Of a stretch of DNA of 64,000 nucleotides, positions 1,017 through 19,496 are shown in pieces (positions within the stretch are counted from its first letter, which is position 1; the number at the start of each line of letters is the position of its first letter). This DNA comes from a virus. The translations under genes were made by a program, and so were the position numbers. The notes beneath the pieces were generated by a model. That model searched no databases. It had not been told where the DNA came from and saw nothing but the letters and a program-made list of their open reading frames with translations. Location: positions 128,001 to 192,000 of IMG/VR virus record IMGVR_UViG_3300017991_000049; one strand, 5' to 3'.

Positions 1017-1018
1017 AG

Positions 1019-1266: not shown

Positions 1267-1569
1267 TTAGTTAAGAATCGCGTACAGATCGGATTCCTTA
1301 GCCAGCACGTAATCAACTCCGTCAAGTGTAACGGTTTCCGCGTACGCTGAGAAGAGCACGCGGCTACCTACTGTCACCTGCTTGCAGTCGATTCCGACCG
1401 CTACAGCGGTGCCCGTCTGCGGCTTCTCGGTCGAGCCCTCGGGCAGTGTAATGCCACCAGGCGACATCGTTTCCCGCGGATCGGGCGTGATCAGCACGCG
1501 CTCTCCAATCGGCTTGCAGTCCACAGGATTGCACTTACACTTGTCATCACAAGCACATCCACTAGCCAT
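1267..1569 (-). CDS. GroES-like co-chaperonin with Cys-rich N-terminal extension
   Basis: The C-terminal two thirds carry GroES hallmarks: 'ITLPEGSTEKPQTGTAVAVG' and 'VLFSAYAETVTLDGVDYVLAKESDLYAILN'. The likely start at 1569 gives 'MASGCACDDKCKCNPVDCKPIG'. Confidence 0.6.
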   Translation of the reverse strand: MASGCACDDKCKCNPVDCKPIGERVLITPDPRETMSPGGITLPEGSTEKPQTGTAVAVGIDCKQVTVGSRVLFSAYAETVTLDGVDYVLAKESDLYAILN

Positions 1570-1571
1570 CT

Positions 1572-2453: not shown

Positions 2454-2474
2454 CTACAAACTAAAGTGCGACTT

Positions 2475-2900
2475 TCACTCGTCGCCCAGTAGCTCCTCCC
2501 ATTTGTCAATACGACGTACGTCACTGTCGTCGTGGTATGTGCTGGACTCGTAGGCCCACGTGTCGTGTTCGGCGCTCAGCCGATGCCAGTCGCCAGGATG
2601 CAGCATGATCGACCAGCCGGGCTGCAGCCTAGCGATCTGCAATGCCACCATCGAGTGGATGCCGGTGCGCATCAGCTGTTCTGGGTCGCCCTGCAAATAC
2701 TCTACGACCAAACAGCCCGATTCGCAAGTAATTACCTCGGCCTTGATCGGATGCTTGTGAATGCTCGACTTCTTGCCCGCCTTGACGAACAGCGTCTTCT
2801 GGCACAGGTTGTGATTGACGTCATTGAGATGCCACGACTCGTAGCCCCAATCCTTCGGCACAAACTTCGCGGTTTGCACGGGAATGACTTCAGCTGCCAT
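2475..2900 (-). CDS. Cupin-domain protein (sugar isomerase/epimerase-like)
   Basis: The product has 'PKDWGYESW' and a later 'HPGDWHRL' His-containing cupin motif. A strong GAGGAGGAGG ribosome-binding site lies upstream. Confidence 0.45.
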   Translation of the reverse strand: MAAEVIPVQTAKFVPKDWGYESWHLNDVNHNLCQKTLFVKAGKKSSIHKHPIKAEVITCESGCLVVEYLQGDPEQLMRTGIHSMVALQIARLQPGWSIMLHPGDWHRLSAEHDTWAYESSTYHDDSDVRRIDKWEELLGDE

Positions 2901-3216
2901 CTTCCTCTTCCTCCTCCTCGGGGTCGCCGTATATCTGTTTAACGTCGGTCTTGAACTCAGTCTTACAGTGTGCGCAGGTCACAATGCAAGGGGCCATGAC
3001 CGGAAAACCCTCGTCGGGCTCGATATCGAGCGCGTGGTACACGAGGTTTTCCTCAATGAGCGAGCGGTAAGGCGGCATGATCGCACAGACGAAGTTCTGC
3101 CGTCCACACTCGTCACAATCCCACGCAAACGCGGGGTGTAGTTCGACTTCGATCACACCAGTAGCCCTGCACAGGTCAATATGATTAAGAGCGCCGCGCC
3201 GATGCCTGCTATCCAC
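2890..3216 (-). CDS. Small Cys-rich, acidic-tailed protein
   Basis: The product has CxxC-type pairs ('WDCDECG', 'CAHCK') and a poly-Glu C-terminus. It overlaps the start of the cupin gene. Confidence 0.3.
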   Translation of the reverse strand: MDSRHRRGALNHIDLCRATGVIEVELHPAFAWDCDECGRQNFVCAIMPPYRSLIEENLVYHALDIEPDEGFPVMAPCIVTCAHCKTEFKTDVKQIYGDPEEEEEEDGS

Positions 3217-3256
3217 ATCGCAATGGCGAATTCGCTTGGAAACAGATCGTTCATGG

Positions 3257-3907
3257 TTACTTAGGCGGCTTGGCGGCGCGTTCGACAGCCAAGCAGACCT
3301 CTCCGTCTTTCTCGATGAGTGTGTTCATGTCGTCGAACGGGATATACGCTCGGCCGTTTTTGCCCCAGTTTTGGCCCCATGAGTTCTTGATCCGGAACAG
3401 CCCGCGCTCCTTGGATACGCCAGTGACGAGGTAGGCATGCCCGCCGTAGTTTGGCCCTGTGGCCGACAGGACAGCGTCGGCGCCTGGCCGATCCATGCCC
3501 TTGTACCAGTTGGTGCCCACAACGACCGGTCCGCGCTCCAGCACGGCGTCGAGCAGCGTGTCCACGTCCCAGGCCCACTCGTATCGGTCGATCAGGCCGA
3601 GCATCTTGAGCACCTTGGCGCCTGCACGCACCGACGTGCCGTCGTAGTTGGTGCCCTTCCACTCGTCGTACTTCTTGCAGATCGTGTATAGGCCGTCGGG
3701 GTTGAGCCAGTGGCGGATCGGCGCGCTGGCCAGCCAGTGCGACCATGCAAAGCCCACACAATGCGGGGTGGCCTTCTGGTCCTGCCAGCAGCGATGATCC
3801 TGCCAGAAGCGATAGACGCGTTCGCTCGCTGTGCGTGGGATGCGGAATCGTCTGTCGCGGGCGTCGGGCTTGTAGCGCCGACCGTAGTTACGCTTGGGCA
3901 TTGTCAT
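3257..3907 (-). CDS. Papain-like (C1 family) cysteine peptidase
   Basis: The active-site Cys sits in 'HCVGFAWSHW', the His in 'GGHAYLVTG' and the Asn/Trp in 'NSWGQNWGKNGRAYIPF'. An AAGGAG ribosome-binding site lies upstream. Confidence 0.65.
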   Translation of the reverse strand: MTMPKRNYGRRYKPDARDRRFRIPRTASERVYRFWQDHRCWQDQKATPHCVGFAWSHWLASAPIRHWLNPDGLYTICKKYDEWKGTNYDGTSVRAGAKVLKMLGLIDRYEWAWDVDTLLDAVLERGPVVVGTNWYKGMDRPGADAVLSATGPNYGGHAYLVTGVSKERGLFRIKNSWGQNWGKNGRAYIPFDDMNTLIEKDGEVCLAVERAAKPPK

Positions 3908-4523
3908 GCTCCTTGTCTGGGTTTTGCCAACTTAGATCGTACCCGAAACGGCGATCGGCGTGAAACCAGGGCCTTACTGTGTTCCACAGCTCTGGCGTAT
4001 ACACCTGCCGAAAAGGTGGGTGCGCTGTATTGTAGTTGTCTTCCTGTATCGGCACCTGTGCGGCACCCACGTGCGCCATTACCTCATCGAATCCGCGCTG
4101 CATGTCCTCGAACGGTACGACGAATGACACGATCGTACGTCCGTACCCGGCGCCTGCCGATGCGCTCGTCCAATGCGCGTTGGGCAACCTGCCATAAGCA
4201 TGCGGCTGCAAGCCACGCACCCATTGTTCGAAGGATTTTCTACGAACACGTGAAGCCTGCATACGCTTTAAGAACCAGTAGAGCGACACCAAACGCGCCA
4301 TAGGGTGGCGCACGGTCGTAAACCACGTATAGTCACGACACTGCGCATACTGCGGCATCTTCTTGAACTCTGCCGGCGATGTGTGTTGATCAGCCTGACG
4401 CGGCCACCGCGGCATAAACCAACGCTCGGCGCCCAACTCGTCCTGCAGCGTCCGCCCTATCGACGAACTGGCGCAGCGCGGATTACAGAAGAACAACAGC
4501 TTGTAGTCGTGCGCAACTATCAC
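3888..4523 (-). CDS. Sulfotransferase-family protein
   Basis: The 5'-PSB-like motif is 'LLFFCNPRCASSSI' and the 3'-PB-like motif is 'TVRHPMARLVSLYWF'. Confidence 0.5.
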   Translation of the reverse strand: MIVAHDYKLLFFCNPRCASSSIGRTLQDELGAERWFMPRWPRQADQHTSPAEFKKMPQYAQCRDYTWFTTVRHPMARLVSLYWFLKRMQASRVRRKSFEQWVRGLQPHAYGRLPNAHWTSASAGAGYGRTIVSFVVPFEDMQRGFDEVMAHVGAAQVPIQEDNYNTAHPPFRQVYTPELWNTVRPWFHADRRFGYDLSWQNPDKEHDNAQA

Positions 4524-4855
4524 TGGACTAACACCTTGGAGATGTCGAGCAGTGCGTGACAGACGCGCAGGGCGTACTGGTTGGTATTGATCAGATCAGG
4601 CTCGAGGGCGTGGTCCTCTTCCAGCTCATCGTCGTCCTTCATGGTCTTGACGATCTCGTCCAGGTGCGCAATGCAGTCCTTGGCCGCACAGCTGCGGATG
4701 AACTCGCCATAGCGGGCAGTCAGCTCAGGTACGGTGGCGCCAGCGTCGCGCTCGGTGCGCAGCTTCGTGAGAAACTCCTCCAGCTCCTCGGCTGCTTCGC
4801 GCAACTCAACGGCCAGCTGGGACAACTGGTGCATGTATCGGACGCTACGTGACAT
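4520..4855 (-). CDS. Hypothetical acidic coiled-coil protein
   Basis: The ORF has a GGAGGAA ribosome-binding site upstream of the MSRSVRYM start. It packs tightly against its neighbours. Confidence 0.35.
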   Translation of the reverse strand: MSRSVRYMHQLSQLAVELREAAEELEEFLTKLRTERDAGATVPELTARYGEFIRSCAAKDCIAHLDEIVKTMKDDDELEEDHALEPDLINTNQYALRVCHALLDISKVLVQ

Positions 4856-5555
4856 GAAGTTCCTCCACGAGGTCTGCAACCTCTTCGCCAACTGGATAAC
4901 CGAACTCCTCGAACCATGCAAGGTACTTTTCTTCGATATGCTGGATATCGAAGTACGGCAGCCGCTGGTGGTAGCCGCCGATACCGACGTGCTGCCGGTG
5001 GCGCTGTTTGCCGTACAGGAAGCCCTGTTCCGGCTCGTATTCAGTGTTCAGCTCAGGTAGAATCTCGAGCTTGATTGCTATGTCTTCCAGCTGCCGATAG
5101 TCGAAGCTGTGGTCTGGGAACAGGTGCCTGGCCAGCATATCCAGCGTACCCACCTTGTTGACCATCATGCTCTCGAATCGGAGCCCCTTGGTCGCGCACG
5201 CCGTCCATTCGAACGCAGGCTCGACAAGCAGCGCCTCCATACCGACGAATACGCCATCGCAGAGTCCACGGCGCTTGTACGACTCGACTTCCAAGAGCTG
5301 GGCAGCTACAGCGCTGCAGAACGCGTCTCGCAGGTCGCGGACGATGGTGATGACTTTGTCGGCCGGGCGCCAGTCCACTGAGATGTCGTGGGTCTTGATA
5401 ACCTCGATGAACCCGGCCGGCGGCGGCTCATACGACTGAATATCGGTGGCATAGACGATGCCTGGGAACAGCTTCTCCGCCAGCATGCGCACGGCGTTGA
5501 ACGTCCACGTGGAGCCCGAACGGGCCATTGCCCCGACAACGATCCTGGTCATCAT
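4845..5555 (-). CDS. Sulfotransferase-domain protein
   Basis: The N-terminal 'GAMARSGSTW' is a PAPS-binding 5'-PSB motif of the PKSGTTW type. 'IVRDLRDAFCS' is 3'-PB-like. The start is ATGATG, directly after conserved motif copy 2. Confidence 0.6.
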   Translation of the reverse strand: MMTRIVVGAMARSGSTWTFNAVRMLAEKLFPGIVYATDIQSYEPPPAGFIEVIKTHDISVDWRPADKVITIVRDLRDAFCSAVAAQLLEVESYKRRGLCDGVFVGMEALLVEPAFEWTACATKGLRFESMMVNKVGTLDMLARHLFPDHSFDYRQLEDIAIKLEILPELNTEYEPEQGFLYGKQRHRQHVGIGGYHQRLPYFDIQHIEEKYLAWFEEFGYPVGEEVADLVEELHVT

Positions 5556-5556
5556 T

Positions 5557-5572
5557 TTGTTCCTGTGATCAA
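5557..5572 (-). promoter_or_regulatory. Conserved 16-bp motif (copy 2)
   Basis: The plus strand reads ttgttcctgtgatcaa. It fills the 19-nt gap between a stop codon and the ATGATG start. Confidence 0.45.
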
Positions 5573-5574
5573 AA

Positions 5575-6228
5575 TCAGCGTTCCATCATCTTCACCCGGT
5601 GCTGCGGGCCAGCAAGCGCCATCAGGTCGTCCTCCTGCTCTGGCGTAAGCCATTGCGGGATACCGACTAACGACGCGGCCACCAAGCTCTGCGCAGCGTC
5701 CTCGACGATCTGGCAGCGGAAGAACGCCTGTCGCATAGTCGTACCCAAGGCACAGAAGCCATGGTTGACCATGAAGATCGACTCGGCTTCCTTGGCAGCC
5801 TCCGCCATCCGGTCGGCTAGTTCCTGTGTGGTAGGCGTGACATACGGCACCGTGGCACGCCGGCCCAGATCATTGACTACCTCAGCGAACATCGCCCGTT
5901 GCGCCATATCTAGGCCTGAGCTGATCACGCCACACAGCCAAGGCGAATGTACGTGGAACACGGCGTGGATGTCTGGACGCGCTCGATAGATGGCCAGATG
6001 CATCTGGGTCTCAGACGTCGGCTTGTAGGTGCGCGTACGCGGCTTGCCGCTGTCGATCGCCACGGGGCACAGCTGACGTATGTGCAACTCACCCAGGGAC
6101 AACCCGCTCGGCGACAGCCAGGCGGTGTCGCCGTCGCGCGCACTGATGTTGCCGCCAGAGCCAACAACCAAGTGTGCGTCGTAGAGCTTCTTGCCGTATC
6201 GGACTAGGGCGTGTGTGATAGCACTCAT
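5575..6228 (-). CDS. Class II aldolase/adducin-family protein
   Basis: The product has 'GSGGNISARDGD', 'HVHSPW' and 'NHGFCALG'. The start at 6228 gives a TAATG overlap with the upstream stop codon. Confidence 0.6.
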   Translation of the reverse strand: MSAITHALVRYGKKLYDAHLVVGSGGNISARDGDTAWLSPSGLSLGELHIRQLCPVAIDSGKPRTRTYKPTSETQMHLAIYRARPDIHAVFHVHSPWLCGVISSGLDMAQRAMFAEVVNDLGRRATVPYVTPTTQELADRMAEAAKEAESIFMVNHGFCALGTTMRQAFFRCQIVEDAAQSLVAASLVGIPQWLTPEQEDDLMALAGPQHRVKMMER

Positions 6229-6989
6229 TAGCAATAGTTCTCGTACTGCAGGCCACCAGGAATTTCCACGATGGCCGACTGTTCGATCACGTGGCACCAG
6301 GAGAAGAGTTCGATCATGTAGGCTTCCTTCTTCACGTGGCAGTGCAGGCCGTCCACAGCGAGTTCCAGCGACACAGGAACGTCCTTGTGCATCATGCGGA
6401 TCTCGTGGACCGGTCCCATCGTAGAGCAGGCCAGCGCAATCATTACGCGCCGCTCGTGTGTGTTATCGAAGGACGCCTCGTCCCAGTCCCACGTCCATTT
6501 GGGCGACACGATGCGCCGCGGCATGTGCGGTAGGCCGCCAGCAGGGAACGGTCGCGGCTCGCACCAGCGAGGTAGCGCATCCACCATGGCGTAGCGCATG
6601 CCAACGGACAGCAGGGAGCTGAAATGCTCGTCATTCGCTGCCTGGTCTACCAACCAGCCCAGCGGATGCTTAGGCTCAGGCAGCCCGTCGAGCTTCTCTC
6701 CGCGGGACATGTGCATGCTAAGCGGTATCGTAGAGAACGGTACTGCCACAGCGCGCGTCCCCGTGGCTATGCCGTGCTTCTTCAGCACCTTGGCGTACTC
6801 GAGGATCTGCGTGGCGACCATGTCCGGTACGTCCGCAGTCTTGTCCGACTTGAGCTGGGACGCCATGCGCTCCTGTTCGGTCTTCATCAGTGCCTGCTCG
6901 GTTTCCATGTCACAGCCGTTGGCTGCCATCAGCGTGGACTGAGAGATCAGGCCGGCGCCTGCCAGCCCTAGAAAGCTTCTGCGTTTCAT
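6228..6989 (-). CDS. Tat-signal secreted protein of unknown function
   Basis: The N-terminus reads 'MKRRSFLGLAGAGLISQSTLMAANG', which contains the twin-arginine RRxFLG motif. Confidence 0.5.
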   Translation of the reverse strand: MKRRSFLGLAGAGLISQSTLMAANGCDMETEQALMKTEQERMASQLKSDKTADVPDMVATQILEYAKVLKKHGIATGTRAVAVPFSTIPLSMHMSRGEKLDGLPEPKHPLGWLVDQAANDEHFSSLLSVGMRYAMVDALPRWCEPRPFPAGGLPHMPRRIVSPKWTWDWDEASFDNTHERRVMIALACSTMGPVHEIRMMHKDVPVSLELAVDGLHCHVKKEAYMIELFSWCHVIEQSAIVEIPGGLQYENYC

Positions 6990-7140: not shown

Positions 7141-9762
7141 CTATTGAAGCATCTGTAGCATTTGTTGACGGCGCGGCTCGCCTGGCCCGACAAACGGTAT
7201 GGTAAAGCCCTTCTCCGCCTTGATGCCTTCGATGGCCTTCTGGCGCATCTCTGGCGGGAGCTGCGCGATGAGCTGCGCCATCTGCTGGTCTGGGATCTTC
7301 TTGTAAGCCCACGCCTTGATCAGGTCTTTGACGTCAGCTTGGGAGTCCAAGATGCCTTTCTTGCCGCCCTTATCGCCGTACTTGTTCACCCAGCCGAACT
7401 GTTGTCGTAGATCGGCCATGGCCTGTTCGGGCGTCTGCGGCTCAGGCGGTCCCTGGCGGACGCCAGCCGGTACGTTGGCCTCGTTACGCATTCCAGGAGG
7501 CCCTTGTAACGCCGGATCGGCCGCTGGTATCTCATTAGGCGGCTCTTCGGGCGGAAGCTCCGGAACTGGCGCTGCGGCTGCTGGCGGCGGCACAGGGCCA
7601 GCAGGCTCTACGCCAGGAATCTCAGGCGGCCCTTCGGGCATTGTTGGCCCAGCCGGGGGCTGTTCAGCGCCCTCAGGCGCTGCCTGGTCGCCTCCACCGC
7701 CGAACTGGTTCATCACCCAGTCGCCACCTCCGAAGGCCCATCCGAGCCCACCGAGACCGAGCGCGCCGCCGAGCATGGTCATCATGCCGTCGCCGCCCAT
7801 CAGGCCGTTGATGAGCCCCATGACAGCGCCACCGACGCCGACGATGAGACCGAGCTTCTCGTGCCAATCCGAGTTCTTCCACCAATCGATGGCCTGCTCG
7901 ATGTAGCCCGGATCCTGCTTTAGCTGCTCAGGATCAGCGCCCATCTGGGCCGCGTCCTGCTCGGCTTTGTACTCGAACGCCTTGCTGAGGTCGTCGGCAT
8001 CGTATTCACCGTCAGCCCACTGGCGGGCGATCTTGCCCATGGCCTGCTCAACAGGGATGCCCTGCTCATAGGCCAGCTTGTGCGCCTTCTCGATACTGCG
8101 GTTCGCAATGACCTGCTGCACGGCACGTGGCACCTGCTCCTGTGGCACCTGCCCGGAGTTGATGGCGGCCGTCAGCTGCTCGATCTGTTGCGGCTGCATC
8201 GGATTGCTCATGGCGCGCTGGAAGGCGTCGTCGCCTACAGGGCCCTCGTAGATCATCTGGGCGACCGCTGGGTCCAACGGCTGCTGTGGTGCTGCAGGAG
8301 GCTGTCCAGGGGCCTCAGCGGCCGGAGGCGGCTGTTGTGGTGCTGCGGCCGGAGGCGGCTGTTGTGGTGCTGCGCCCGGTTCTGGTTGCGCTGGTGGCGC
8401 TCCAGTAGCCGCTCCTGGAGCCTGAACGGTCCCAGAGGCCGATGGTGTTGCAGGAGCGCCCTGAGCGCCCTGAGGGCCGCCCATCTCTGGGATCGGTCCT
8501 GTGGGCGGCAGCTCTGTAGCAGCGCTTGGCTGCGTAGCGGCAGGCGGGTTGGCCTGTGCTGCTGCCGCGCCAGCCTGTTGGCCAGCGGCAAACGATTCGG
8601 TCGGTGCGCTGGGCGCTGCTGGCGTTAGCGGCGCTGGTTTCGGTCTGTTGCCCTGCATGAGGCTTTCCATGTGCTTCACGAGTATGGATTGCTGTGTTGG
8701 ATATGCTTCGACCGCTGGTGGCCCTTGTTCGCCGAAAGACTGTTCCCACTTCTCGTACTCGGCTTGCGCTGCGTCGAAGAAGCCTTTCTTCTCTTCATCG
8801 GTGAGTCTTGCGAGCACCTGTTGCTCGGGACTGCCCTCTGGCCACATGCCAGCGCCGACCGAACCCATCTCGCCGAAGATCAGGCCCAGGAAGCCCTTGC
8901 CTTTGCCGACGACATACGGCAACGCCGTCGACGCCGTATCGAACATGATACGCCCGGTGTCGGTGAATTTGTCGCCGGGGCCCTGCTTAGCGGCTGAGCT
9001 TTCAGTGTCGTGCCACCAGTCGTCGAATCCGCGGCTGGTCCGTGGACTGAACAACTGGTGCATACCGCGCTCATACGCGTTCTGGTACGGCACACGCGCC
9101 GAGCGCATTGCTTCCACGCCGTGATCAGTGATGCCTAGAGCATCAGTGCCGTAGGCACCGAGCTGTCCGATACCACCAATCACGTCGCCCCAGAAGCCGC
9201 CTGCGCCGCCCAGTGCGCCTTTCGTTGCAGCTACAACTGGCGCGATGAAGCCTGGGTTACGAATTTGACGCCCGCCGGGGGCGTTGAAACCCTGCTCAGC
9301 ACTGATCTGGTCCTGTGTGGCCCAGCCTGGCCCTTCATCGATTCCAGGCGTATTTTGCCACTGCCATTCGTTCTTCCGGCTCGGTGTGCCTACCTTGTGT
9401 CCCGGATCCAATCCCGGCTTGGTAGCCGGATCGATACCACGAGAGATGAGGTCGGCACGCATGCGGGCCTGCTCTGCTTCGATCGACGGACGCGGCCCCG
9501 GTGCAGGGCCAGGACCGTCCCAGGCTAGCTCCGGCGGCTTGAATGCGGGCTGTTTCGCCCCACGTGCGTACATGGCCGCGCCCATACGGCCACCGATCGG
9601 GCCGGCGAGCGGGAGAGCCTGCTTCTCGAGCGCCGCACCCTCAGTGAATAAAGATGCAGGGCTGCCTGCTGACCGCTGGCGTGGTTGGTCAGCAGACAGG
9701 CCCTGCGGAGCGGATTCGATGGTCAAGGCAAAGGCTGCCTTGATTAGCTGTTCTGTGTTCAT
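7141..9762 (-). CDS. Large Pro/Ala/Gln-rich virion-associated protein with Gly-zipper segment
   Basis: The 873-aa product has long low-complexity PAQ tracts. A 'GLIVGVGGAVMGLINGLMGGDGMMTMLGGALGLGGLGWAFGGGD' segment looks like an ejection, internal or tape-measure-type protein. Confidence 0.45.
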   Translation of the reverse strand: MNTEQLIKAAFALTIESAPQGLSADQPRQRSAGSPASLFTEGAALEKQALPLAGPIGGRMGAAMYARGAKQPAFKPPELAWDGPGPAPGPRPSIEAEQARMRADLISRGIDPATKPGLDPGHKVGTPSRKNEWQWQNTPGIDEGPGWATQDQISAEQGFNAPGGRQIRNPGFIAPVVAATKGALGGAGGFWGDVIGGIGQLGAYGTDALGITDHGVEAMRSARVPYQNAYERGMHQLFSPRTSRGFDDWWHDTESSAAKQGPGDKFTDTGRIMFDTASTALPYVVGKGKGFLGLIFGEMGSVGAGMWPEGSPEQQVLARLTDEEKKGFFDAAQAEYEKWEQSFGEQGPPAVEAYPTQQSILVKHMESLMQGNRPKPAPLTPAAPSAPTESFAAGQQAGAAAAQANPPAATQPSAATELPPTGPIPEMGGPQGAQGAPATPSASGTVQAPGAATGAPPAQPEPGAAPQQPPPAAAPQQPPPAAEAPGQPPAAPQQPLDPAVAQMIYEGPVGDDAFQRAMSNPMQPQQIEQLTAAINSGQVPQEQVPRAVQQVIANRSIEKAHKLAYEQGIPVEQAMGKIARQWADGEYDADDLSKAFEYKAEQDAAQMGADPEQLKQDPGYIEQAIDWWKNSDWHEKLGLIVGVGGAVMGLINGLMGGDGMMTMLGGALGLGGLGWAFGGGDWVMNQFGGGGDQAAPEGAEQPPAGPTMPEGPPEIPGVEPAGPVPPPAAAAPVPELPPEEPPNEIPAADPALQGPPGMRNEANVPAGVRQGPPEPQTPEQAMADLRQQFGWVNKYGDKGGKKGILDSQADVKDLIKAWAYKKIPDQQMAQLIAQLPPEMRQKAIEGIKAEKGFTIPFVGPGEPRRQQMLQMLQ

Positions 9763-9770
9763 GGCTATCC

Positions 9771-10673
9771 CTAAAGCTGAATGCCGGGCCAGCGTGCAAT
9801 CTTGTCTCGGCTCGGGCTGACCTTCTTGTCGCTGAGCCCGTCAGTCGCTTCGGTGGTCGGACATGCCGGCTTGAACCCGCCAGCGGCCGGACCGTATGTG
9901 CTGTTCTGCAACACCTGCGTCACGCTGGGCACGAGCATGGCCAGCTTGTCGTAGGCATCCTTTTCCTGCGCAGCCTCCTGCTTCTTCTTTTCCTTCTCTG
10001 CCCGCTGGTTCTCGTACTGCTGTTCGTAGTTGTTGCCGGGCAGCCACTTGTCGAGCAACATCGAGGTCGGTAGGCCGGCAGCCAATCCGCCGATGCCCAT
10101 ACCAGCTAGACTGCCCAGCGGATGTCCAGTCATTCCACCGGCTGCGCTACCAACACCCATACCAGCAAGCAGGGGAACCACTGAGCCCCAGGTGTGCAGA
10201 CTGTTACGCTCTGTGTCTGGCATTTCACCGCTTTCCCAGCTAGGCGCCTTCTGCCGCCCGCCAAGCGCATAACCGGCAACGCCGCCTGCGCCCATACCGC
10301 CGAGCGCGCCGAGGCCAGCACCAGCGCCGATGTCTTCACCCATGAGATGTGCGATAAGCGCACCTAGGCCAGCGCCACCGGCGCCGCCACCGAGCATACC
10401 AAGACCGGTCTTAGCGCCACGCCGTGCACCTCTCGCATAGCCCTCAGTGCGGTTGCCGGACGGCGCAAACATCGCACCAAGTCCGCCGCCGATGAGGCCG
10501 GTGTCCGAAATGCTCTGCTTCTCCAGTGCGAGCTTCTCCAGCCGCTCAGCACACGCCTCGGCCATCTTACGACGACCCCTGCGCTTCTTGAGCGCTTTGG
10601 CGACGATCTTGTCCTGCTCGTCGTCCTCTTCGATCGGCTTACGGACGGCCATTATGTCTTGTGGGTCAGGCAT
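9771..10673 (-). CDS. Glycine-zipper membrane protein
   Basis: The product has GxxxG-rich repeats such as 'GIGGLAAGL' and 'GAGAGLGALGGMGAGGVAGYALGG'. An AAGGAGAG ribosome-binding site lies upstream. Confidence 0.45.
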   Translation of the reverse strand: MPDPQDIMAVRKPIEEDDEQDKIVAKALKKRRGRRKMAEACAERLEKLALEKQSISDTGLIGGGLGAMFAPSGNRTEGYARGARRGAKTGLGMLGGGAGGAGLGALIAHLMGEDIGAGAGLGALGGMGAGGVAGYALGGRQKAPSWESGEMPDTERNSLHTWGSVVPLLAGMGVGSAAGGMTGHPLGSLAGMGIGGLAAGLPTSMLLDKWLPGNNYEQQYENQRAEKEKKKQEAAQEKDAYDKLAMLVPSVTQVLQNSTYGPAAGGFKPACPTTEATDGLSDKKVSPSRDKIARWPGIQL

Positions 10674-10686
10674 CGTTCTCTCCTTG

Positions 10687-12138
10687 TTATGCGTATGACG
10701 ACAAGCGGCCGGCCTGGTCGAGCTGGTCTCGTAGGCCGCTGTGCAGGATATCCGCGCTCTGGTCGCTCATGGCGGTGTTGAACGCGTTGGGGTCATGCCC
10801 GGTCTCGAACTGGTCGCGCCGGGCCAGGTAGTTCTGCTGCGGCAAGCTGACGTCAGCACCGCCACGCAAGCCAGCACGCGCCTTGGAAGCGATCATGTCG
10901 CCCCGGCGCTCTAGGCCGCTGTAGTAATCCATCATCTTCTGGGCGTTGGCCTTCTGGCCCTCGCCGATCACGCTGCCACGGCTGGACAGTCCACCAACGT
11001 CGCCCTGTCGGAGCGAATCGTAGTATTCCATCTGTTCGCGGAATCGGCTGTCGGCCCACGGTGACTTCTGTTCCGGTACCGCACCACCGCCACCGGTGGC
11101 CTCGAAGCGCGCTGTGGCGTCAGGGAGATCCATGCTATCGGGCGGAGGGCTTTCCATCGTGCCCGACGCCATCGCATCACCAGGCGTACCAGGCTCAGCA
11201 GGCGCGTTCATGCCATCCATCCTGGCAATCTCAGCCTCGAAGCCTGGGCCACGAGGATTGGGCGGCTCGTTCATGCCATCCATCCTGGCGATCTCTGCCT
11301 CGAAGCCTGGGCCACGAGGGTTCGGTCCAGGCCCGCTCTCTGGCATGCGCGCGTTCATGTCGGCCACGGCCGCCTCAAAACCAGGGCCACGAGGGTTGCC
11401 AGGCTCAGGCGGCGCATTCATGCCGTCCATACGTGCAATCTCTGCTTCGAAGCCTGGACCACGTGGATTGGGCACAGGACCACTCTCAGGCATCCTGGCG
11501 TTCATGTCGGCCACAGCAGCATCGAAACCAGGGCCACGAGGGCTGTCCGGCTGTTGCCAGTTGATCTCCGGAAGCGGAGGCCCAGGGTACTTGTCCTTGG
11601 CGAGGTCAGGCGCACCAGGCTTAGGCGCATTGCCTGTAGGCTCACCGACAGTATCCCAGTTGACGTCCGGGAGCGGACCGCCAGGCGGCTGGTCGTAGGC
11701 TGCATCAACAGGCCCGCCCATGGCCGGGCTGATCGGCTGCTGCGGTGCTTGCGGAGTTGCAGGCTGCTGTGCTGCTACAGGCTTAGGCGCAGGACGCCGG
11801 CCGCTCGAATAGAACGAGTAATCGGCTGTTCTGTTGGGGTTGGCCGGGCCGCTGAGTGTTGCGCCCGGTGCGCCACCAGCGCCGACACCGCTGGCAGCAA
11901 GCGCCTTGGGTATGTCCTGAAAGCCCTTGTTGGCCATCATGGGCAGCTTAGCGGGCGGACGGGTAGGCGGCTTCAGCCCACCGACGCCACCTGCCATTGG
12001 CTTGGGGCCTACTGGATTGAGCGCCTTGAGACCGGCGCCTCCGACGCCACCAGCGCCACCAAGAGTCTTAGGTGGCTCAATAGGGGCAGCTTCCTTGAAC
12101 AGGCCCACGCCGGCCTGCAGAAGTTCTTGAGAGTTCAT
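10687..12138 (-). CDS. Repeat protein (about 5 copies of NPRGPGFEAEIARMDGMN)
   Basis: The product has tandem ~30-aa repeats and a Pro-rich linker. An AAGGAG ribosome-binding site lies upstream. Confidence 0.5.
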   Translation of the reverse strand: MNSQELLQAGVGLFKEAAPIEPPKTLGGAGGVGGAGLKALNPVGPKPMAGGVGGLKPPTRPPAKLPMMANKGFQDIPKALAASGVGAGGAPGATLSGPANPNRTADYSFYSSGRRPAPKPVAAQQPATPQAPQQPISPAMGGPVDAAYDQPPGGPLPDVNWDTVGEPTGNAPKPGAPDLAKDKYPGPPLPEINWQQPDSPRGPGFDAAVADMNARMPESGPVPNPRGPGFEAEIARMDGMNAPPEPGNPRGPGFEAAVADMNARMPESGPGPNPRGPGFEAEIARMDGMNEPPNPRGPGFEAEIARMDGMNAPAEPGTPGDAMASGTMESPPPDSMDLPDATARFEATGGGGAVPEQKSPWADSRFREQMEYYDSLRQGDVGGLSSRGSVIGEGQKANAQKMMDYYSGLERRGDMIASKARAGLRGGADVSLPQQNYLARRDQFETGHDPNAFNTAMSDQSADILHSGLRDQLDQAGRLSSYA

Positions 12139-12183
12139 TGTCCGCTCCTTGGACTTGTGTTCCGCTCCTCTAATTTACCAGCT

Positions 12184-12822
12184 TTACCCCTCTGGGACAT
12201 AGAGACCTTCGAACAACTTCCAGTCGATCTGGTCGGTGATCTGGCGGATGTGTTCGGGCTTCAGTAGCTCCAAATACTGCTTTTCCGTGTAGTATTGGCG
12301 CTTGAACTTGTACTGAGGCATCCCTCCAGGGGTACTGCCTGGCCGTACAATCGTCTCCGGCAGCGCGTCCCAGCGCTTCTTCGGCGGGCCCAGCAGCTCG
12401 GTCATCGGCGCGTAGAGCGCGTCCAGCGACTCCAGCACGTCCTCGTACCGAACGATGGCCTTGTCGTACTTCGTCTTGAACCAGGCCCGGTAGAAGTTGT
12501 TGTACTGCCCGATGCGGTAGCCCAACTTCGCTGGCCCGTACGAAAACGGAATCTTGGTGTCGGGGATCTTGGTGCCCTGATGGCCTGCCTGCACTGCCCA
12601 TGCATGCCAACTGACGATCCACGCATAGGGATCCTTCAAATTGATCAGCAGAACAGTATTGAGCGGCCAATCTCTCGAGTCCTGTACTGTGCGGTGCTTG
12701 GTAGTACGCCCGCGCTTACCGCGGCGACCGACCAGGTGATTGTATCCCCAACCATCTTCCACCATCTTGCCACACATGGTCGTGCCAGAGCGTGGCAATC
12801 CTCGCTGTTGTACCTTACGCAT
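12184..12822 (-). CDS. Sulfotransferase-domain protein
   Basis: The N-terminal 'RGLPRSGTTM' is a 5'-PSB motif. Confidence 0.45.
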   Translation of the reverse strand: MRKVQQRGLPRSGTTMCGKMVEDGWGYNHLVGRRGKRGRTTKHRTVQDSRDWPLNTVLLINLKDPYAWIVSWHAWAVQAGHQGTKIPDTKIPFSYGPAKLGYRIGQYNNFYRAWFKTKYDKAIVRYEDVLESLDALYAPMTELLGPPKKRWDALPETIVRPGSTPGGMPQYKFKRQYYTEKQYLELLKPEHIRQITDQIDWKLFEGLYVPEG

Positions 12823-12830
12823 ATCGGTCC

Positions 12831-13517
12831 TTACGTCTTGGAGAACTTGTTCAGTGTGCTGTCTATCAACGTGGACGGTAACGGCTTGCCGAGCGCTTGC
12901 TCAGTGGCAGCGAATTGGTCCGGTCGTGACATCATGTTCCACGTGGTGCTGCCTGCAGCCTCTCCAGCGCGCTGACCGAAGTTCTTAGCCCAGTCAGGCG
13001 ACCAGTCTGGCAGGTAGCTCTGCGCCTTGTTGGCACCTACGCTAGGCGCTGCAAGACCAGCGAAGTACCGCGGAAGCTCCTGCGCTGCCACGCCTAGTCC
13101 GCCGCCTAGTGCACCACCACCGAGCATGCCCTTGGATATGCCGCTGAGCATATTCGACATGTAACCGGCCTTGGGCGCAACCTGATCGTAGTCAACGCCC
13201 ATTGACTGCAGCATCTGGATCTCTTCGGGATCCAGCTCGCCCGCTTCCTCGACGTTGACCATCTTCATGACGATCTGCGGGTCGATACCGGCTGACAAGA
13301 GCTGCTGCGCCATGTCCTGATCGATCGGTTCGCGGTAGCCGCCGCTGATGTTGCTCAGACCGCCAGCAAGGCCACCAGCAAGGCCACCAAGGCCAGCGCC
13401 CACGATACCGCTCTTGAGCGTCGGATCCCAGCCAGACATAGCTTCCTGGGCCTTGGAGGCCAGGTTGGCCATCCAAGGCGCTACGGCGACTTTCTCTAGG
13501 GTTGCGTACTTGTTCAT
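12831..13517 (-). CDS. Gly-rich (glycine-zipper) protein
   Basis: The product has 'GIVGAGLGGLAGGLAGGLSNISGG' and 'MLGGGALGGGLGVAA'. Confidence 0.4.
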   Translation of the reverse strand: MNKYATLEKVAVAPWMANLASKAQEAMSGWDPTLKSGIVGAGLGGLAGGLAGGLSNISGGYREPIDQDMAQQLLSAGIDPQIVMKMVNVEEAGELDPEEIQMLQSMGVDYDQVAPKAGYMSNMLSGISKGMLGGGALGGGLGVAAQELPRYFAGLAAPSVGANKAQSYLPDWSPDWAKNFGQRAGEAAGSTTWNMMSRPDQFAATEQALGKPLPSTLIDSTLNKFSKT

Positions 13518-13527: not shown

Positions 13528-14691
13528 TTATAGCCACGGCACAGGATCGCCGATGTCTGGGAACTCCGACAGGTCTACGGGCGACAAAGAATAGCCGACC
13601 GGCAACGTTGCAGCGATCAGATCGTATTGACCATTGACTGCGCACGAGCCGCTCACCTTCTCTCCATAGTTGGCAACAGCCCAGTGCTGCGATACCCACA
13701 CCAACTCGTTGTTGACGATGATGAACTGCGGATCCCCCGAATCGCCGGTATAGATCTGTTTGTCTGGCGGATAGAAAGCCGCACGCTGCGCATCGCCCGA
13801 AACGAACTCTGGATCTCGTGTACGGAAGCTTTGCCACTTGGAGGTGCCGTAGCACCCGGTTATGTCCATCACCAATGCGTCTTCGCGGTTGTTGCGACTG
13901 TTCTGGCAGAACGTCGGTATGCCGTAGGCTTTAACATCAGGGTCTTCGAAGCTGATGTAGCTCTTGCCAGTGAACTTCACGGCGTCTTCAGGCCGCAGGA
14001 ACTTGCACGGCGTGATCGTGCCCGGTAAGTCTAAGTTCAGCTCGCACACTGTTATGTCAAGCGTATGTCCGCCATCCTCCGGCGGCCTGAAGAGCGATGT
14101 CTTCGACTGAATTGTGCGCTTCTCTACGGCGTTGGCCATCGTTATGAAGTGCAACTCAGCGCCGACTGGTGGATCCCAATGCGTTGCGGCTATCACGTGC
14201 TTGGGCGTGATCAACGTACATGCCTGTTGGCGGTTATTCGTGTTGTACGGCGAGATGCACGTCATATCGATGTCCGCTGCCCAGCAGTTGACATTGCGCA
14301 CGTACGTGTCGGTCTCCTCGACACGGGTCGTGTACATTGGGAGCGCCACATCGGGATCAAGCCCACGGATCCGATCGTCGACCATGGCCGAGGCGTGCTC
14401 AAACAACGTGATAGGCGCCTGCGACGAGGACGATGACGACTCCACGACAACAGGCTCAGGGCTGACCGTACGAGGTGTCTCCTCGCCAAGGTGCCAGGGG
14501 TCGTTCTCTGTGGAGGCTCTGTCTGGCGCAGGGTAGCCGTCAGGGATGCCAGAGGCGCGCGGCTGTGGCCGCCACACAGGGTAGACGTGGATCAGGCTGT
14601 CCTGGGGCACAACGGTAGCGTTAGGGCGCCGATACGTGGTTCGGATACCCTCCCGCTCTAGGAATCGTCGTGCGTCGCCTGTGATTGCCAT
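13528..14691 (-). CDS. S1 (trypsin)-like serine peptidase-fold protein, paralog 1
   Basis: 'LITPKHVIAATHW' resembles the TAAHC motif and 'TGDSGDPQFIIVNNELVW' resembles GDSGGP. The N-terminal 100 aa are shared with the adjacent paralog. Confidence 0.5.
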   Translation of the reverse strand: MAITGDARRFLEREGIRTTYRRPNATVVPQDSLIHVYPVWRPQPRASGIPDGYPAPDRASTENDPWHLGEETPRTVSPEPVVVESSSSSSQAPITLFEHASAMVDDRIRGLDPDVALPMYTTRVEETDTYVRNVNCWAADIDMTCISPYNTNNRQQACTLITPKHVIAATHWDPPVGAELHFITMANAVEKRTIQSKTSLFRPPEDGGHTLDITVCELNLDLPGTITPCKFLRPEDAVKFTGKSYISFEDPDVKAYGIPTFCQNSRNNREDALVMDITGCYGTSKWQSFRTRDPEFVSGDAQRAAFYPPDKQIYTGDSGDPQFIIVNNELVWVSQHWAVANYGEKVSGSCAVNGQYDLIAATLPVGYSLSPVDLSEFPDIGDPVPWL

Positions 14692-15858
14692 TTATGCCTC
14701 CGATGCGCGCCATGCGCACATTGGGCCGACGTCTGGAAACCCGGATATGTCAATCGACCCCAATTCGTAGCCTACCGGTAACAGCGCATTGATGTCTGCT
14801 GCCATTCCGCTTAGAAACGGTCGGCCGGTGCCGCCGTCCCGCTGGGTGAGGATGCTCGTATGCATGTTTATGAGCGCCAACTCGCCGTTGACGATAGCAC
14901 ACGTCACGTCGCCCGAGTCGCCGGAGTTGATCTTGTTCGGATAGAACGCGTCGCGCGTTGGATCGTAGGAACGGTAATACCACGCTGTACGGTACTTGAC
15001 CTCCGGATACAGCCCGCCAATATCCATCACTTGGCCATCTTCGCGAGCGCTGCGGCTGTTCCCTACGAACACTGGCATACCAACGGCTTTGTTCTCCTCG
15101 GTGATGGGCGCAAACAGATAGCCAGGTCCAGCAAACTTCACATCGGCCTCCGCCGGCAATAGCTTGGCCGGCGTGATCGTCCCTGGGAGATCAGAGCTCA
15201 ACTCGCCGATACGCATATCAGCCGTCTGTGGCCCAGTGCTCGGGTCGATGTACGTCACGTCGGTCCAAGACATGAGCGTACGCTTCTCGACCACGTTGCC
15301 CATAGTGACAAAGTGGAGCACGCTCCCGATAGGAGGATACCAGCCAAGGTGCGTCACCGATATCACATGCTTGGGCGTGATTAGCGTAGCGCTCTTCATG
15401 TGGTTATCGTCGTTCCACGGAACGAGGCAGGTCATATCGACATCTGCGGCCCAGAAGCTGGTATTCCGTACGTACGTCTCGGTCGCACCATCTCGGACGG
15501 TGAACATGGGCACGGCGACATTCGGATCCAGTCCTCGGATACGGTCGTCGATCTGCGCTGTGGCATGCTCTAACAACGTAGTGGTCTGCACCGACGACGA
15601 AGATGAACTCTCCTCAGGCACCACGGGCACGACAGTGCGCGGCGTGACTGGGCCAAGATGCCAGGGGTCGTTCTGCGTGGAAGCTCTGTCGGGGTTAGGC
15701 GCGCCGTTGAGGATGCCAGAGGCACGTGGGAACGGCCGATCCACAGGATAGTCGTGGATGGCGCTGTCACCAGGCACAACGGTCCCGATCGGTCGCCTGT
15801 ACGTTGACCGCATCTTCGCGCGCTCCAAGAAGCGCCTAGCGTCCATGGTGACAGTCAT
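14692..15858 (-). CDS. S1 (trypsin)-like serine peptidase-fold protein, paralog 2
   Basis: The product has 'LITPKHVISVTHL' and 'NSGDSGDVTCAIVNGELALINMH'. Its N-terminus, 'MTVTMDARRFLERAKMRSTYRRP', is highly similar to that of paralog 1. Confidence 0.5.
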   Translation of the reverse strand: MTVTMDARRFLERAKMRSTYRRPIGTVVPGDSAIHDYPVDRPFPRASGILNGAPNPDRASTQNDPWHLGPVTPRTVVPVVPEESSSSSSVQTTTLLEHATAQIDDRIRGLDPNVAVPMFTVRDGATETYVRNTSFWAADVDMTCLVPWNDDNHMKSATLITPKHVISVTHLGWYPPIGSVLHFVTMGNVVEKRTLMSWTDVTYIDPSTGPQTADMRIGELSSDLPGTITPAKLLPAEADVKFAGPGYLFAPITEENKAVGMPVFVGNSRSAREDGQVMDIGGLYPEVKYRTAWYYRSYDPTRDAFYPNKINSGDSGDVTCAIVNGELALINMHTSILTQRDGGTGRPFLSGMAADINALLPVGYELGSIDISGFPDVGPMCAWRASEA

Positions 15859-15866: not shown

Positions 15867-16142
15867 CTAGATCTTAGCGACGATACCCCAGTCAGCGTCA
15901 CATGCAGCACCGCTGCCCTTGATCGTGACTTTGGTGATCCCTGACCGCTTACGGCGGAAGACCAGCGTAGCACCAGGGCGCATGGTAATGAAGTCGGCAG
16001 CGTCGTGCAGACCTTCGATGTTCACCATGCCCGGGTTAGCCGAGCTGGACAGGATGTGCACCATGAACGACGTGCAGCCCTGCTTATCTGAGTAGACGAC
16101 CGTGCCGCCCGTACCGTAGTTTCCAGTTCCTGCTGTGGCCAT
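15867..16142 (-). CDS. Small hypothetical protein
   Basis: An AAGGAG ribosome-binding site lies before MATAGTGNYG. Confidence 0.35.
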   Translation of the reverse strand: MATAGTGNYGTGGTVVYSDKQGCTSFMVHILSSSANPGMVNIEGLHDAADFITMRPGATLVFRRKRSGITKVTIKGSGAACDADWGIVAKI

Positions 16143-16153: not shown

Positions 16154-17836
16154 TTACAGTGAAAGTCCTAGTCCGCTCGCTTCGCCCCACTCCGGGAGAT
16201 CCTCTGCGCTGCCGTCAGCGGGCACGAGCGTTTCGTAGCATCCCATGCAGTACCCTGCGCCTCTGGGCCGTGACCGCTCCAGGATGTCGTGCCGTATGTA
16301 CTCATTGAAGTATCCGACCGGGGTGCTGTAGATGTTGTTGCCTACGTCCTGGCCCACAGACCCGTCGAACAGCGTGAAGTCGCCGCCCGGTGCATCAGTG
16401 AAGATGTTGGCCGGCGTTGCCTCTGAGAGGTTCCCCGAGCCACCCAGCACGCTTTGCGCTGTCCCGTCTCCGTCGTCCATGTTGTAACCGGCCGTGATCG
16501 ATGCTGGCGGGCTGCCACTGAAGCTGTAGCAATTGCTACCTATCGCTGAGCTGATATTGTTCTGGGCGTAGAGTACGGGGATGTCGCTGAAGATCTGCCA
16601 GTCGAGGAAGGCCCCAGTGACGTCGTATGCCGTGTTGTTGTAGAACCAGAGACTGACATACGCACCCGACACGCAGTGGAACACATCAATTCCGATGTCG
16701 TAAAACAGGCAGTTGGCGAACGAGATGAAATGTGGCGAAGAGCCCGCGAACAAGTTCAGCCCGTTAGACAAGCCATGGAACGTGCAGCGATCGAACGCCC
16801 AGAACGTGTACGAGTTGCCAGGTGATACACCGTTCGACATGTCCTTGAACTCGATGCCGGTGACGCGGAGGAACTCTCCATTGCCTTGGCCGTTGACACC
16901 GCCGTTATTCACTTGCGTGGCAATGTACGGTGACTCGCCATCTGCCGGCTCAATAAAGGCATTCTGCGACGCCCAAGGCGCCCCGAACTCCACACCACCA
17001 AGGTCGCCACCGCCGTAGCAAATGGCGTACTCGTCGTCTCCACTACCACCGCGCGCAGCTGACCAGGCAGCCAACGTCGTGTAGTCGCCCACGGTGACGA
17101 GGTTCGTAGGCACGTCGTCAGCCAAGGCCATGCCGCTCTGCGAGACGGTCAGCGTGCCAGGAAGCTCATCGTCGTACCCTACACCGGTGAAGTACCAGGC
17201 CAACGAGAGCGTTGCCACCTCGTCCGGAGGCACCGGACTGCCTGCATAGGCGCCGGTGCCGGACAGCTGTGCCCGCTCATCTGCGGTGAACACACGGCCC
17301 GTGATCTTACACCAGTGGGACATCTTGTTGCCACTGTTGATGTAGTTTGTGTCGCCCTCCTCCCTCCGTCCGAAGTTCACGTAGTCAGTGCAGTAGACAG
17401 AGACCGGCGCCTGCATGTACGTCATGTACGACTGCTCCACGCCATCAACGTAGATCCTCGCACGGTAATCGCCGGACAAGTACTCCACAGTAATGTGCCG
17501 CCATCCAGGATTACCGTTGAACGGGGCGGTACTGGTTAGAGTCGTACCGCCACCGAACTCTCCAGTGTCTATATCGACTTTTACATTCCCTGCCTGGATG
17601 AACACGCTGTCTTCCGGTATCGTGATGGCGAACAGCATCCCGGAACCGCCATCGTTCCACTCCAGCAGCGTTTGGAAACCACTGCCGGCGTTGCTGTCCA
17701 TGAACACCCATCCCGCTATCGCCCAACCATCCTGCGGCAGGTCGAACACCGAGTTCTGGTTCACGCGGACGTACGACGATCCACTGAACTCCCAGCTCCG
17801 GGCTGCAGGCGTGATTGTCTTGGTTGTGGTTCCCAT
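16154..17836 (-). CDS. Tailspike/tail-fibre-like protein (LamG-like N-terminal domain plus right-handed beta-helix)
   Basis: The N-terminal lectin-like region reads 'WAIAGWVFMD...WRHITVEY...YVDGVEQ'. The C-terminal region has periodic beta-helix signatures such as 'NNTAYDVTGAF' and 'GNNIYST', with aromatic and Asn ladders. Confidence 0.5.
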   Translation of the reverse strand: MGTTTKTITPAARSWEFSGSSYVRVNQNSVFDLPQDGWAIAGWVFMDSNAGSGFQTLLEWNDGGSGMLFAITIPEDSVFIQAGNVKVDIDTGEFGGGTTLTSTAPFNGNPGWRHITVEYLSGDYRARIYVDGVEQSYMTYMQAPVSVYCTDYVNFGRREEGDTNYINSGNKMSHWCKITGRVFTADERAQLSGTGAYAGSPVPPDEVATLSLAWYFTGVGYDDELPGTLTVSQSGMALADDVPTNLVTVGDYTTLAAWSAARGGSGDDEYAICYGGGDLGGVEFGAPWASQNAFIEPADGESPYIATQVNNGGVNGQGNGEFLRVTGIEFKDMSNGVSPGNSYTFWAFDRCTFHGLSNGLNLFAGSSPHFISFANCLFYDIGIDVFHCVSGAYVSLWFYNNTAYDVTGAFLDWQIFSDIPVLYAQNNISSAIGSNCYSFSGSPPASITAGYNMDDGDGTAQSVLGGSGNLSEATPANIFTDAPGGDFTLFDGSVGQDVGNNIYSTPVGYFNEYIRHDILERSRPRGAGYCMGCYETLVPADGSAEDLPEWGEASGLGLSL

Positions 17837-19130: not shown

Positions 19131-19496
19131 CTACCAGCGGAAGTGGAATTGGTATCCGTACGGGCGGTACTGTTGGCCGTAGGGCTGTGTGTTGTAGTGA
19201 GGGCCAAAGTACAGCTGCAGGCTCTGCGATCGGTAGTTATGTGGGCAGCGCTGCTGTGGCGCGTACTGTGGGCGCGCTCTGGGCGGCCGTTGGTACGTGG
19301 GCCGCGGCCGGTACTGGCGGTACTGCCGCTGGTACTGCTGTCCGTACATCGGGCGCTGGCCGATCTGCACCTGCACGCCTACCTGCGGGCCCATGCCACG
19401 CTTCTGGGGATGGTTGTCGGCCATACGCCACGACTGTGCGCTACACATGGCAGTCACGGCGAAGAACAGTGCGATAGTGAGTAGAACGCGTTTCAT
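19131..19496 (-). CDS. Sec-signal secreted Gln/Tyr/Arg-rich protein
   Basis: The signal peptide reads 'MKRVLLTIALFFAVTAMCSAQ'. The mature part is Q/Y/R/P-rich. A GAGGAGAG ribosome-binding site lies upstream. Confidence 0.45.
   Translation of the reverse strand: MKRVLLTIALFFAVTAMCSAQSWRMADNHPQKRGMGPQVGVQVQIGQRPMYGQQYQRQYRQYRPRPTYQRPPRARPQYAPQQRCPHNYRSQSLQLYFGPHYNTQPYGQQYRPYGYQFHFRW

Follow-up and report, generated by a model that had tools for sequence, protein, structure and literature searches.

The window analysed here is a 64-kb stretch of DNA (64,000 nucleotides; positions 128,001 to 192,000 of the virus record IMGVR_UViG_3300017991_000049) from an element that looks like a large phage and that encodes, elsewhere in the window, a UvsX-like recombinase, a thymidylate synthase and a DNA polymerase exonuclease subunit. 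On its minus strand lie two adjacent genes, here called A and B, whose products are built alike, from a 70-residue N-terminal module (N-module), a Ser-rich linker and a C-terminal domain (Table 1). Alignments and predicted structures together give good support to the view that this domain adopts, in both proteins, the S1 (trypsin) fold with a His-Asp-Ser triad, and that A and B are active-looking S1-fold serine peptidases of the PA clan, with triad and GDSG motif intact.

The gene pair and its peptidase domain

The two open reading frames (ORFs) lie exactly where the initial annotation had placed them, and its description of them as neighbouring paralogues holds, as A and B align over their full length with 52% identity (BLASTP E 6e-124). 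They form a translationally coupled pair: the TAA stop codon of A (14692-14694) stands directly against the ATG of B, and a Shine-Dalgarno sequence for B lies within the 3' end of A. Identity between the two is 72% over residues 1-75, 58% over the first barrel of the peptidase domain (residues 94-240) and 42% over the second (241 to the end). The first 100 residues, initially described as near-identical, are indeed the best-conserved part but reach only 69%. One called protein (P0003) is B truncated at M103, and the exact A protein is carried by eight public contigs of up to 226 kb. Neither A nor B has a signal peptide. A twin-arginine (Tat) signal, which the segment RRFLER recalls (S/T-R-R-x-F-L-K), was considered and rejected, as FL comes straight after RR, which does not fit the spacing of that motif, and the segment is not followed by a hydrophobic h-region.

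A related contig of 8.6 kb (L003) carries orthologues of both genes, A' and B', with the gene order kept; the called genes there start late, and the full N-termini of both proteins are present in the DNA. The duplication is older than the split of these two phages. The ratio of nonsynonymous to synonymous substitution (dN/dS) of A and B against their L003 orthologues is 0.08-0.30 in all segments outside an 18-codon linker, with 0.13-0.30 in the peptidase domain, and this purifying selection argues that A and B are real genes rather than chance ORFs. The N-module is the most conserved part of each protein (87% identity to the orthologue in A, 97% in B), followed by the peptidase domain (60-74% in A, 67-76% in B), and the linker of A is the least conserved segment (56% identity, dN/dS 0.8).

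The evidence for an S1 peptidase comes from both alignments and models. Invariance is limited to seven columns (W136, H170, D214, L220, D314, S315 and G316, numbered as in A) in an alignment of 71 family members that are ~25-33% identical to A, and hhalign places H170, D214 and S315 of A on His57, Asp102 and Ser195 of bovine trypsin (E 9e-4, at a probability of only 23%). Both proteins contain the motifs TLITPKHVI(S/A)(V/A)TH and GDSGD to which the initial annotation had drawn attention, the catalytic His being the second His of the first motif (TH), and the catalytic Asp that it had left to be checked is D214 in A and D212 in B, kept almost throughout the family (Table 1). Gly313, Asp314 and Gly316 of the GDSG oxyanion motif are likewise kept in 149-157 of 158 family domains. 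The Pfam Trypsin model (PF00089) is matched by five of the 71 members (best E 1.8e-6), the family profile finds two bacterial trypsins of the PDB, 5dk1 and 4m7g (E 8e-4), and UniRef gives one member the name 'Peptidase S1 domain-containing protein'.

The AlphaFold2 model of A, made with the 71-sequence alignment, has a predicted local distance difference test score (pLDDT) mostly above 85 over residues 94-383, and that of B (pLDDT 77.7) has its secondary-structure elements in the same order. Two six-stranded beta-barrels, the hallmark of the chymotrypsin fold, are present in the predicted models of both proteins, and a Foldseek search of the PDB gave E 2e-8 and probability 1.0. The S1 fold proposed initially was thus upheld by structure prediction, which did not give a non-protease beta-barrel. 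When predicted viral structures were searched, the sole close match was one uncharacterised phage protein, and the further matches were mostly polyproteins of picorna-like, calici-like and related RNA viruses. Two other identities were considered and set aside: a prohead or maturation protease (S77, S78, S80) or S74 chaperone, as the fold searches gave S1/PA-clan proteins only and neither Pfam nor PHROG gave a match, and a beta-helix tailspike depolymerase, as the predicted folds are an S1 beta-barrel and not a right-handed parallel beta-helix.

Family distribution and the N-terminal module

With a five-sequence profile, HMMER was run exhaustively over 1.84 billion cluster representatives (clusters at 50% identity) and gave 2200 proteins at E up to 1e-3, and 1289 at E up to 1e-10. 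The family to which A and B belong therefore comprises at least 2200 clusters at 50% identity, and it has no model in Pfam, PHROG or NCBIfam. Most of its proteins are ~400 aa long with the domain at the C-terminus, and tandem duplication is unusual among them. A word-indexed protein search with A found only four relatives; with the 71-sequence alignment it returned mostly Ig-domain proteins. Scanning one genome per species with a ten-sequence alignment as the query, we found 60 loci (L014-L073), almost all in Verrucomicrobiota, Planctomycetota, Kiritimatiellia and Lentisphaerae, and the few that remained in Paludibacter and other Bacteroidales. The family is confined mostly to these four groups, here called the PVC group, and their phages. 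The initial remark that trypsin folds are rare in phage tails is accurate for isolated phages, where only one of 50,697 records has a relative and PHROG has no entry for the domain, but not for metagenomes, with their 2200 or more representatives.

Where the surroundings of family members can be read, they fall outside the cytoplasm. The member from the podovirus MW202510.1 (411 aa) occupies the tail-fibre slot, after the internal virion proteins, and directly follows a small beta-helix protein (259 aa) annotated as 'rhamnogalacturonan lyase'. In six IMG/VR contigs the member is a fusion with Big_2 Ig-like domains or has a C-terminal extension, and on the two of these contigs examined for neighbours they are head and tail-fibre-like genes (L004) or an internal-virion gene (L008). 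In two chromosomes, one of a Verrucomicrobiae and one of a Phycisphaerae genome, a tape-measure gene precedes the member by a few genes, which identifies both loci as prophage tails. Phage-type members have no signal peptide; Big_2 Ig-like domains are found in 18 of the 71 aligned proteins. Cell-encoded members, of 570-2343 aa, carry Sec signal peptides and either TSP3 or FG-GAP repeats, and lie among housekeeping genes; by a crude heuristic, 24 of 72 members have signal-peptide-like N-termini. Taken together, the secreted cellular proteins and the tail contexts indicate that the domain works outside the cytoplasm wherever its context is readable.

Several of these loci have further features. 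Besides the 259-aa and 411-aa proteins, the tail-fibre slot of MW202510.1 (L010, 10823-13376) holds a third gene, for an FN3 protein with a signal peptide, and the adjacency of the beta-helix and the S1-like protein echoes the arrangement in the window. The S1-like domain also occurs in giant secreted proteins (P0005, P0077 and P0118 among the examples), including one of 4782 aa on a 429-kb contig and FG-GAP repeat proteins of 2335-2343 aa. Another of these giant proteins, of 1327 aa and from Pontiella sulfatireligans, has a weak TSP3-repeat match and adjoins a PEP-CTERM protein.

The N-module of A and B has a different distribution. Its consensus, from the window copies and loci L074-L087, is M.VT.NARLFLERAGIR.TYRRP.ATVVP.DS.IHSYPVDRPLP...G..DG.P.PDRSSTQNDPWHLG, and in the model of A it has low pLDDT except for a helix at residues 5-13. 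A search with the module found ten metagenomic loci and 29 proteins, all of them free-standing ORFs of 69-87 aa (~72 aa), and no S1-like domain at these loci. The free-standing proteins stop right after WHLG, the very point at which A and B continue into the linker, and have no linker themselves. Since the module stands alone elsewhere and ends at this very point, A and B are best seen as lineage-specific fusions of module, linker and peptidase, and the fusion through a Ser-rich linker is found only in this lineage. The eight N-module loci compared by BLAST showed no further detectable similarity to the window. The free-standing gene has a terminase gene of opposite orientation beside it, and after it come genes for a tiny membrane protein (MFDEWLK...), small ORFs, a 610-aa protein with a weak HATPase_c_3 match and an NAD-dependent DNA ligase; an RNA ligase gene also lies nearby.

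The module has no match in the PDB or in PHROG and is found in no other ORF of the 64-kb window. We considered whether it is a tail-fibre anchor shared among proteins of the phage, and rejected this, as no other ORF of the window has it and elsewhere it is free-standing in non-structural regions. Alternatively, it could be a targeting or tethering peptide for a partner. As a small phage protein that is highly conserved across otherwise unrelated phage genomes, the 70-aa module merits a study of its own.

Neighbourhood and possible roles of the pair

The pair follows the gene of a 560-aa protein that has no signal peptide, with an N-terminal LamG-like and a C-terminal beta-helix-like part. The initial annotation had set A and B next to a LamG plus beta-helix tailspike. 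A 91-aa ORF in fact intervenes, and LamG is recognised only through the L003 orthologue, which matches Laminin_G_3 in Pfam, but the beta-helix part has a weak match to DUF5123 only (E 0.13). The 560-aa protein itself gave no match among PDB sequences or phage records. Compared with its orthologue (L003 3086-4639), its C-terminal ~300 residues are nearly identical and its N-terminal LamG part is much more diverged, which is the reverse of the pattern seen in A and B.

On the other side of the pair lie four low-complexity proteins. Glycine-zipper-like hydrophobic stretches occur in those of 873, 300 and 228 aa, the N-termini of the 873-aa (MNTEQLIKAAFAL...) and 483-aa (MNSQELLQAGVGL...) proteins are alike, and the 483-aa protein contains several near-repeats (NPRGPGFEAE/AIARMDGMN). 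Beyond them is a glycan and sulfation cluster that runs past the window start, where it adds CTP_transf_like, Glyco_transf_25 and two Sulfotransfer_4 genes. The small gene at 19131-19496 would, judging by its signal peptide, encode a secreted protein of this phage-like element. No tRNA genes were found in the window, and the remainder of it is almost unannotatable.

Table 1. Coordinates of the gene pair, its parts and its neighbours in the 64-kb window.
Feature	Position	Strand	Remarks
Gene A	14692..15858	minus	388 aa; N-module, Ser-rich linker, S1-fold peptidase domain
A N-module, residues 1-70 (MTVTMDARRFLER...NDPWHLGP)	15649..15858	minus	55-77% identity to 29 free-standing proteins
A Pro/Ser-rich linker, residues 71-93 (VTPRTVVPVVPEESSSSSSVQTT)	15580..15648	minus	From translation; pLDDT <60
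A predicted S1-fold peptidase domain, residues 94-388	14695..15579	minus	Family hidden Markov model (HMM) E 1.8e-74; triad by hhalign; fold searches
A His170, codon CAC	15349..15351	minus	Corresponds to chymotrypsin His57; aligned to trypsin AAHC; His in 155/158 domains
A Asp214, codon GAT	15217..15219	minus	Corresponds to Asp102; aligned to trypsin NNDIML; Asp in 156/158
A Ser315, codon TCG, in GDSGD	14914..14916	minus	Corresponds to Ser195; aligned to trypsin GDSGGP; Ser in 155/158
GGAGG, Shine-Dalgarno/ribosome-binding site for B	14697..14701	minus	From sequence
Gene B	13528..14691	minus	387 aa; same three-part layout
B N-module, residues 1-70	14482..14691	minus	Same free-standing protein family
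B Pro/Ser-rich linker, residues 71-94 (ETPRTVSPEPVVVESSSSSSQAPI)	14410..14481	minus	From translation; low pLDDT
B predicted S1-fold peptidase domain, residues 95-387	13531..14409	minus	Family HMM E 1.5e-79; triad invariant in alignment
B His171 codon	14179-14181	minus	Codon checked
B Asp212 codon	14056-14058	minus	Codon checked
B Ser318 codon	13738-13740	minus	Codon checked
91-aa ORF between 560-aa protein and A	15867..16142	minus	Called gene in L001 and L003; no family match
560-aa protein, LamG-like and beta-helix-like	16154..17836	minus	Upstream of pair; 73% identity to L003 orthologue
Four consecutive low-complexity proteins (873, 300, 483, 228 aa)	7141-13517	minus	Gly/Pro/Ala/Gln-rich; no family match
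Glycan/sulfation cluster	135-6297		Runs past window start (L088 10701-20571); Aldolase_II among its genes
Sulfotransfer_2	3888-4523		In cluster
Weak Peptidase_C1 match	3257-3901		In cluster
Lyx_isomer	2475-2900		In cluster
rhaM	1572-2438		In cluster
Cpn10	1267-1569		In cluster
Cold-shock protein	1019-1228		In cluster
Glyco_transf_15	135-884		In cluster
Small protein with clear Sec-type signal peptide (MKRVLLTIALFFAVTAMCSA)	19131-19496	minus	Signal peptide followed by Gln/Tyr/Arg/Pro-rich repetitive region
GT4-type glycosyltransferase	37376-38425		Weak match to 'GT4 in conflict systems'
Protein with DUF1016 N-terminal domain	57387-58361

The best explanation that we can offer, and one to which we give an even chance, is that A and B are coupled S1 peptidase fusions that act outside the cytoplasm on a host surface protein, with two specificities. 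The peptidase domain would act either on the virion or after release at lysis and would cleave some protein constituent of the host's surface, as a protein-directed counterpart of the polysaccharide depolymerases; the N-module with its linker would serve to attach the enzyme to a partner, and the two copies would correspond to two substrate specificities. This last point is suggested by the divergence between A and B, which is greatest in the C-terminal barrel, as the second barrel carries the specificity pocket of S1 enzymes. We infer catalysis, an extracellular or virion location, the kind of substrate and tethering through the N-module, and a role in the tail or virion is suggested only by analogy, from distant relatives in tail modules. 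The presence of the family among phage tail genes suggests that some phages may cut host surface proteins. More speculatively, and well short of an even chance in our estimation, phages of PVC bacteria may carry a dedicated class of virion-borne 'protein depolymerases', active S1 proteases mounted on tails through interchangeable adaptors and cutting proteinaceous surface layers or receptors at adsorption; the adaptors would be Ig-like domains in small phages and the 70-aa module with its Ser-rich tether here, where the tandem pair would provide two specificities. If so, finding the domain in giant proteins that bacteria secrete would suggest a shared extracellular proteolytic toolkit, exchanged between hosts and phages.

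Several observations weigh against this proposal. The initial annotation had assigned the pair to a virion module, an assignment that the window did not confirm: with at least 25 large ORFs of the window searched against Pfam, PHROGs and the PDB, no capsid, portal, terminase, sheath, tape-measure or tail gene was recognised in the 64 kb. The genes just downstream (glycan and sulfation enzymes, Cpn10, a cold-shock protein) are non-structural, and so is the setting of the free-standing N-module, unlike that of a classical tail-fibre anchor. As to the peptidase itself, A and B match no model in Pfam (E up to 1), PHROG or NCBIfam, even at E 0.1-1, and A has a Val in place of the Pro of GDSGxP that 149 of 158 members have. 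Searches among PDB sequences, and of phage records at the DNA level, also gave no match to A or B.

It is possible, if rather unlikely, that A and B are instead intracellular proteases of host takeover or anti-defence, in which the N-module would bind a conserved cytoplasmic host or phage target and the peptidase would cleave this target or its partners. The lack of a signal peptide in both proteins and a neighbourhood that is not demonstrably structural would fit such a role, as would the finding of the N-module as a protein of its own in 29 further phage contigs, where small ORFs and nucleic-acid enzymes surround it; the module is also far more conserved (87-97%) than the peptidase (60-76%), as expected for a surface that meets a conserved partner. 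However, all other contexts of the peptidase domain are extracytoplasmic, be they secreted proteins, tail modules or Ig-domain fusions, and the neighbouring LamG/beta-helix-like protein is of a domain type typical of surface and carbohydrate-binding proteins.

Somewhat less likely still, in our view, is a non-virion role in remodelling the envelope, with the pair, the LamG/beta-helix protein and the sulfo- and glycosyltransferases altering or stripping the surface of the infected cell, after lysis or via an export route, for receptor destruction, a superinfection block or release. The downstream genes (Sulfotransfer_2, the two Sulfotransfer_4, Glyco_transf_15, Glyco_transf_25, rhaM, Lyx_isomer and CTP_transf_like), the glycosyltransferase at 37376-38425, the signal-peptide-bearing small protein and the lack of recognised structural hallmark genes nearby all speak for such a role, but A and B have neither a signal peptide nor an apparent export route, and in smaller phages their relatives belong to tail modules and not to metabolic ones.

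We consider it improbable that A and B are morphogenetic proteases that process structural proteins of the phage itself (in the maturation of heads, tail fibres or internal proteins) and not host molecules. Many virion proteins of large phages are processed, the intact triad implies a real protease, and the low-complexity neighbours with similar N-termini could, speculatively, be substrates. However, the prohead proteases S77, S78 and S80 have the herpesvirus-assemblin/HK97 fold, whereas our models match S1 only, and Ig-like fusions, secreted cellular homologues and two diverged copies are ill-suited to a single maturation enzyme. Least likely of all is that the S1 fold serves here as a catalytically dead receptor-binding scaffold, as in haptoglobin, HGF or UmbA/UmbB: although the fold searches also return such non-enzymatic proteins (HGF, haptoglobin, protein Z, scabies SMIPPs and Umb1 particle chains) and A deviates at the Pro of GDSGxP, pseudoproteases typically lose triad or GDSG residues, and ~98% of the 158 domains retain the three triad residues and the glycines of GDSG despite ~25-33% identity.

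To our knowledge, the virion-borne envelope-breaching enzymes described so far act on polysaccharides, teichoic acids or peptidoglycan, and our literature searches for S1 or trypsin-like tail proteins and for proteases in tail modules returned nothing relevant. The proposal of extracytoplasmic peptidases opens the hypothesis that phages may use proteases against proteinaceous surfaces. The alignments point to a large, unnamed and catalytically intact-looking branch of trypsin-like proteins tied to PVC bacteria and phage tail modules, which provides a handle for annotation, with thousands of 'hypothetical' metagenomic proteins assignable to the family, and may be a source of new proteases of unusual specificity.

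Comparison with known systems

The fold and chemistry of A and B are classical; what is new is an uncurated family, its association with PVC bacteria and phage tails, and its fusion to a mobile 70-aa module. We compared the pair with S1 enzymes of the PA clan, including the Saccharopolyspora erythraea trypsin (5dj7, 5dk1), the Streptomyces griseus trypsin (2fmj) and the Staphylococcus V8/GluC protease (1qy6). As in these enzymes, the triad residues come in the order His, Asp, Ser, with spacings in A of 44 and 101 residues (45 and 93 in chymotrypsin), and hhalign aligns the AAH-like, D-x-x-x-x-x-L and GDSG motifs. Unlike them, A and B have a conserved N-terminal extension of ~55 residues (94-152 in A, with a helix and YVRN..CWAAD containing a near-invariant Trp), a second conserved His (H164 in A) six residues ahead of the catalytic one, no signal peptide and no obvious zymogen-activation site. 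Identity to S1 members is only 9-19%, and the strict PROSITE His and Ser patterns, judged by eye, are unmatched (V/T and L/W around the His; GDSGD rather than GDSG[GS]).

Serine peptidases encoded in phage structural modules are already known, among them the S74 chaperone domains of endosialidase and T5 tail fibres and the S77, S78 and S80 proteases. They have other folds and catalytic machinery (a Ser-Lys dyad, an assemblin-like fold), and none was retrieved by any search, A and B matching S1 only. The trypsin-like subunits of umbrella toxins are Streptomyces proteins that mainly form scaffolds or lectin-bearing spokes; A and B differ from those compared (Umb1 8w20, UmbA4 9oee) in that no sequence relationship was detected, the taxa are different and the toxin subunits are not phage-encoded. 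A chymotrypsin-fold serine protease alongside a beta-helix stalk is also found in the serine protease autotransporters of Enterobacteriaceae (SPATEs; S6, PA clan; Hbp 3ak5, Pet 4om9), which are surface-displayed. However, a SPATE is one secreted polypeptide with a beta-barrel translocator, whereas the beta-helix-like protein is a separate gene here and A and B have neither an autotransporter domain nor a signal peptide.

Finally, a functional parallel to our proposal would be the phage tailspike and tail-fibre depolymerases and the virion-associated peptidoglycan hydrolases. The depolymerases known so far act as glycanases, lyases or esterases and have a beta-helix or SGNH fold; the virion lysins belong to the lysozyme, CHAP and M23 types. 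Proteases are absent from a 2018 review of the enzymes with which phages breach the envelope (PMC6116005). The N-terminus of A and B, unlike that of depolymerases, is no recognised anchor domain. Nevertheless, relatives of A and B lie in tail modules and beside beta-helix proteins, A and B combine a conserved N-terminus with a diverged C-terminus as depolymerases do, and by analogy they may be enzymes of a host-recognition module that cut a surface polymer.

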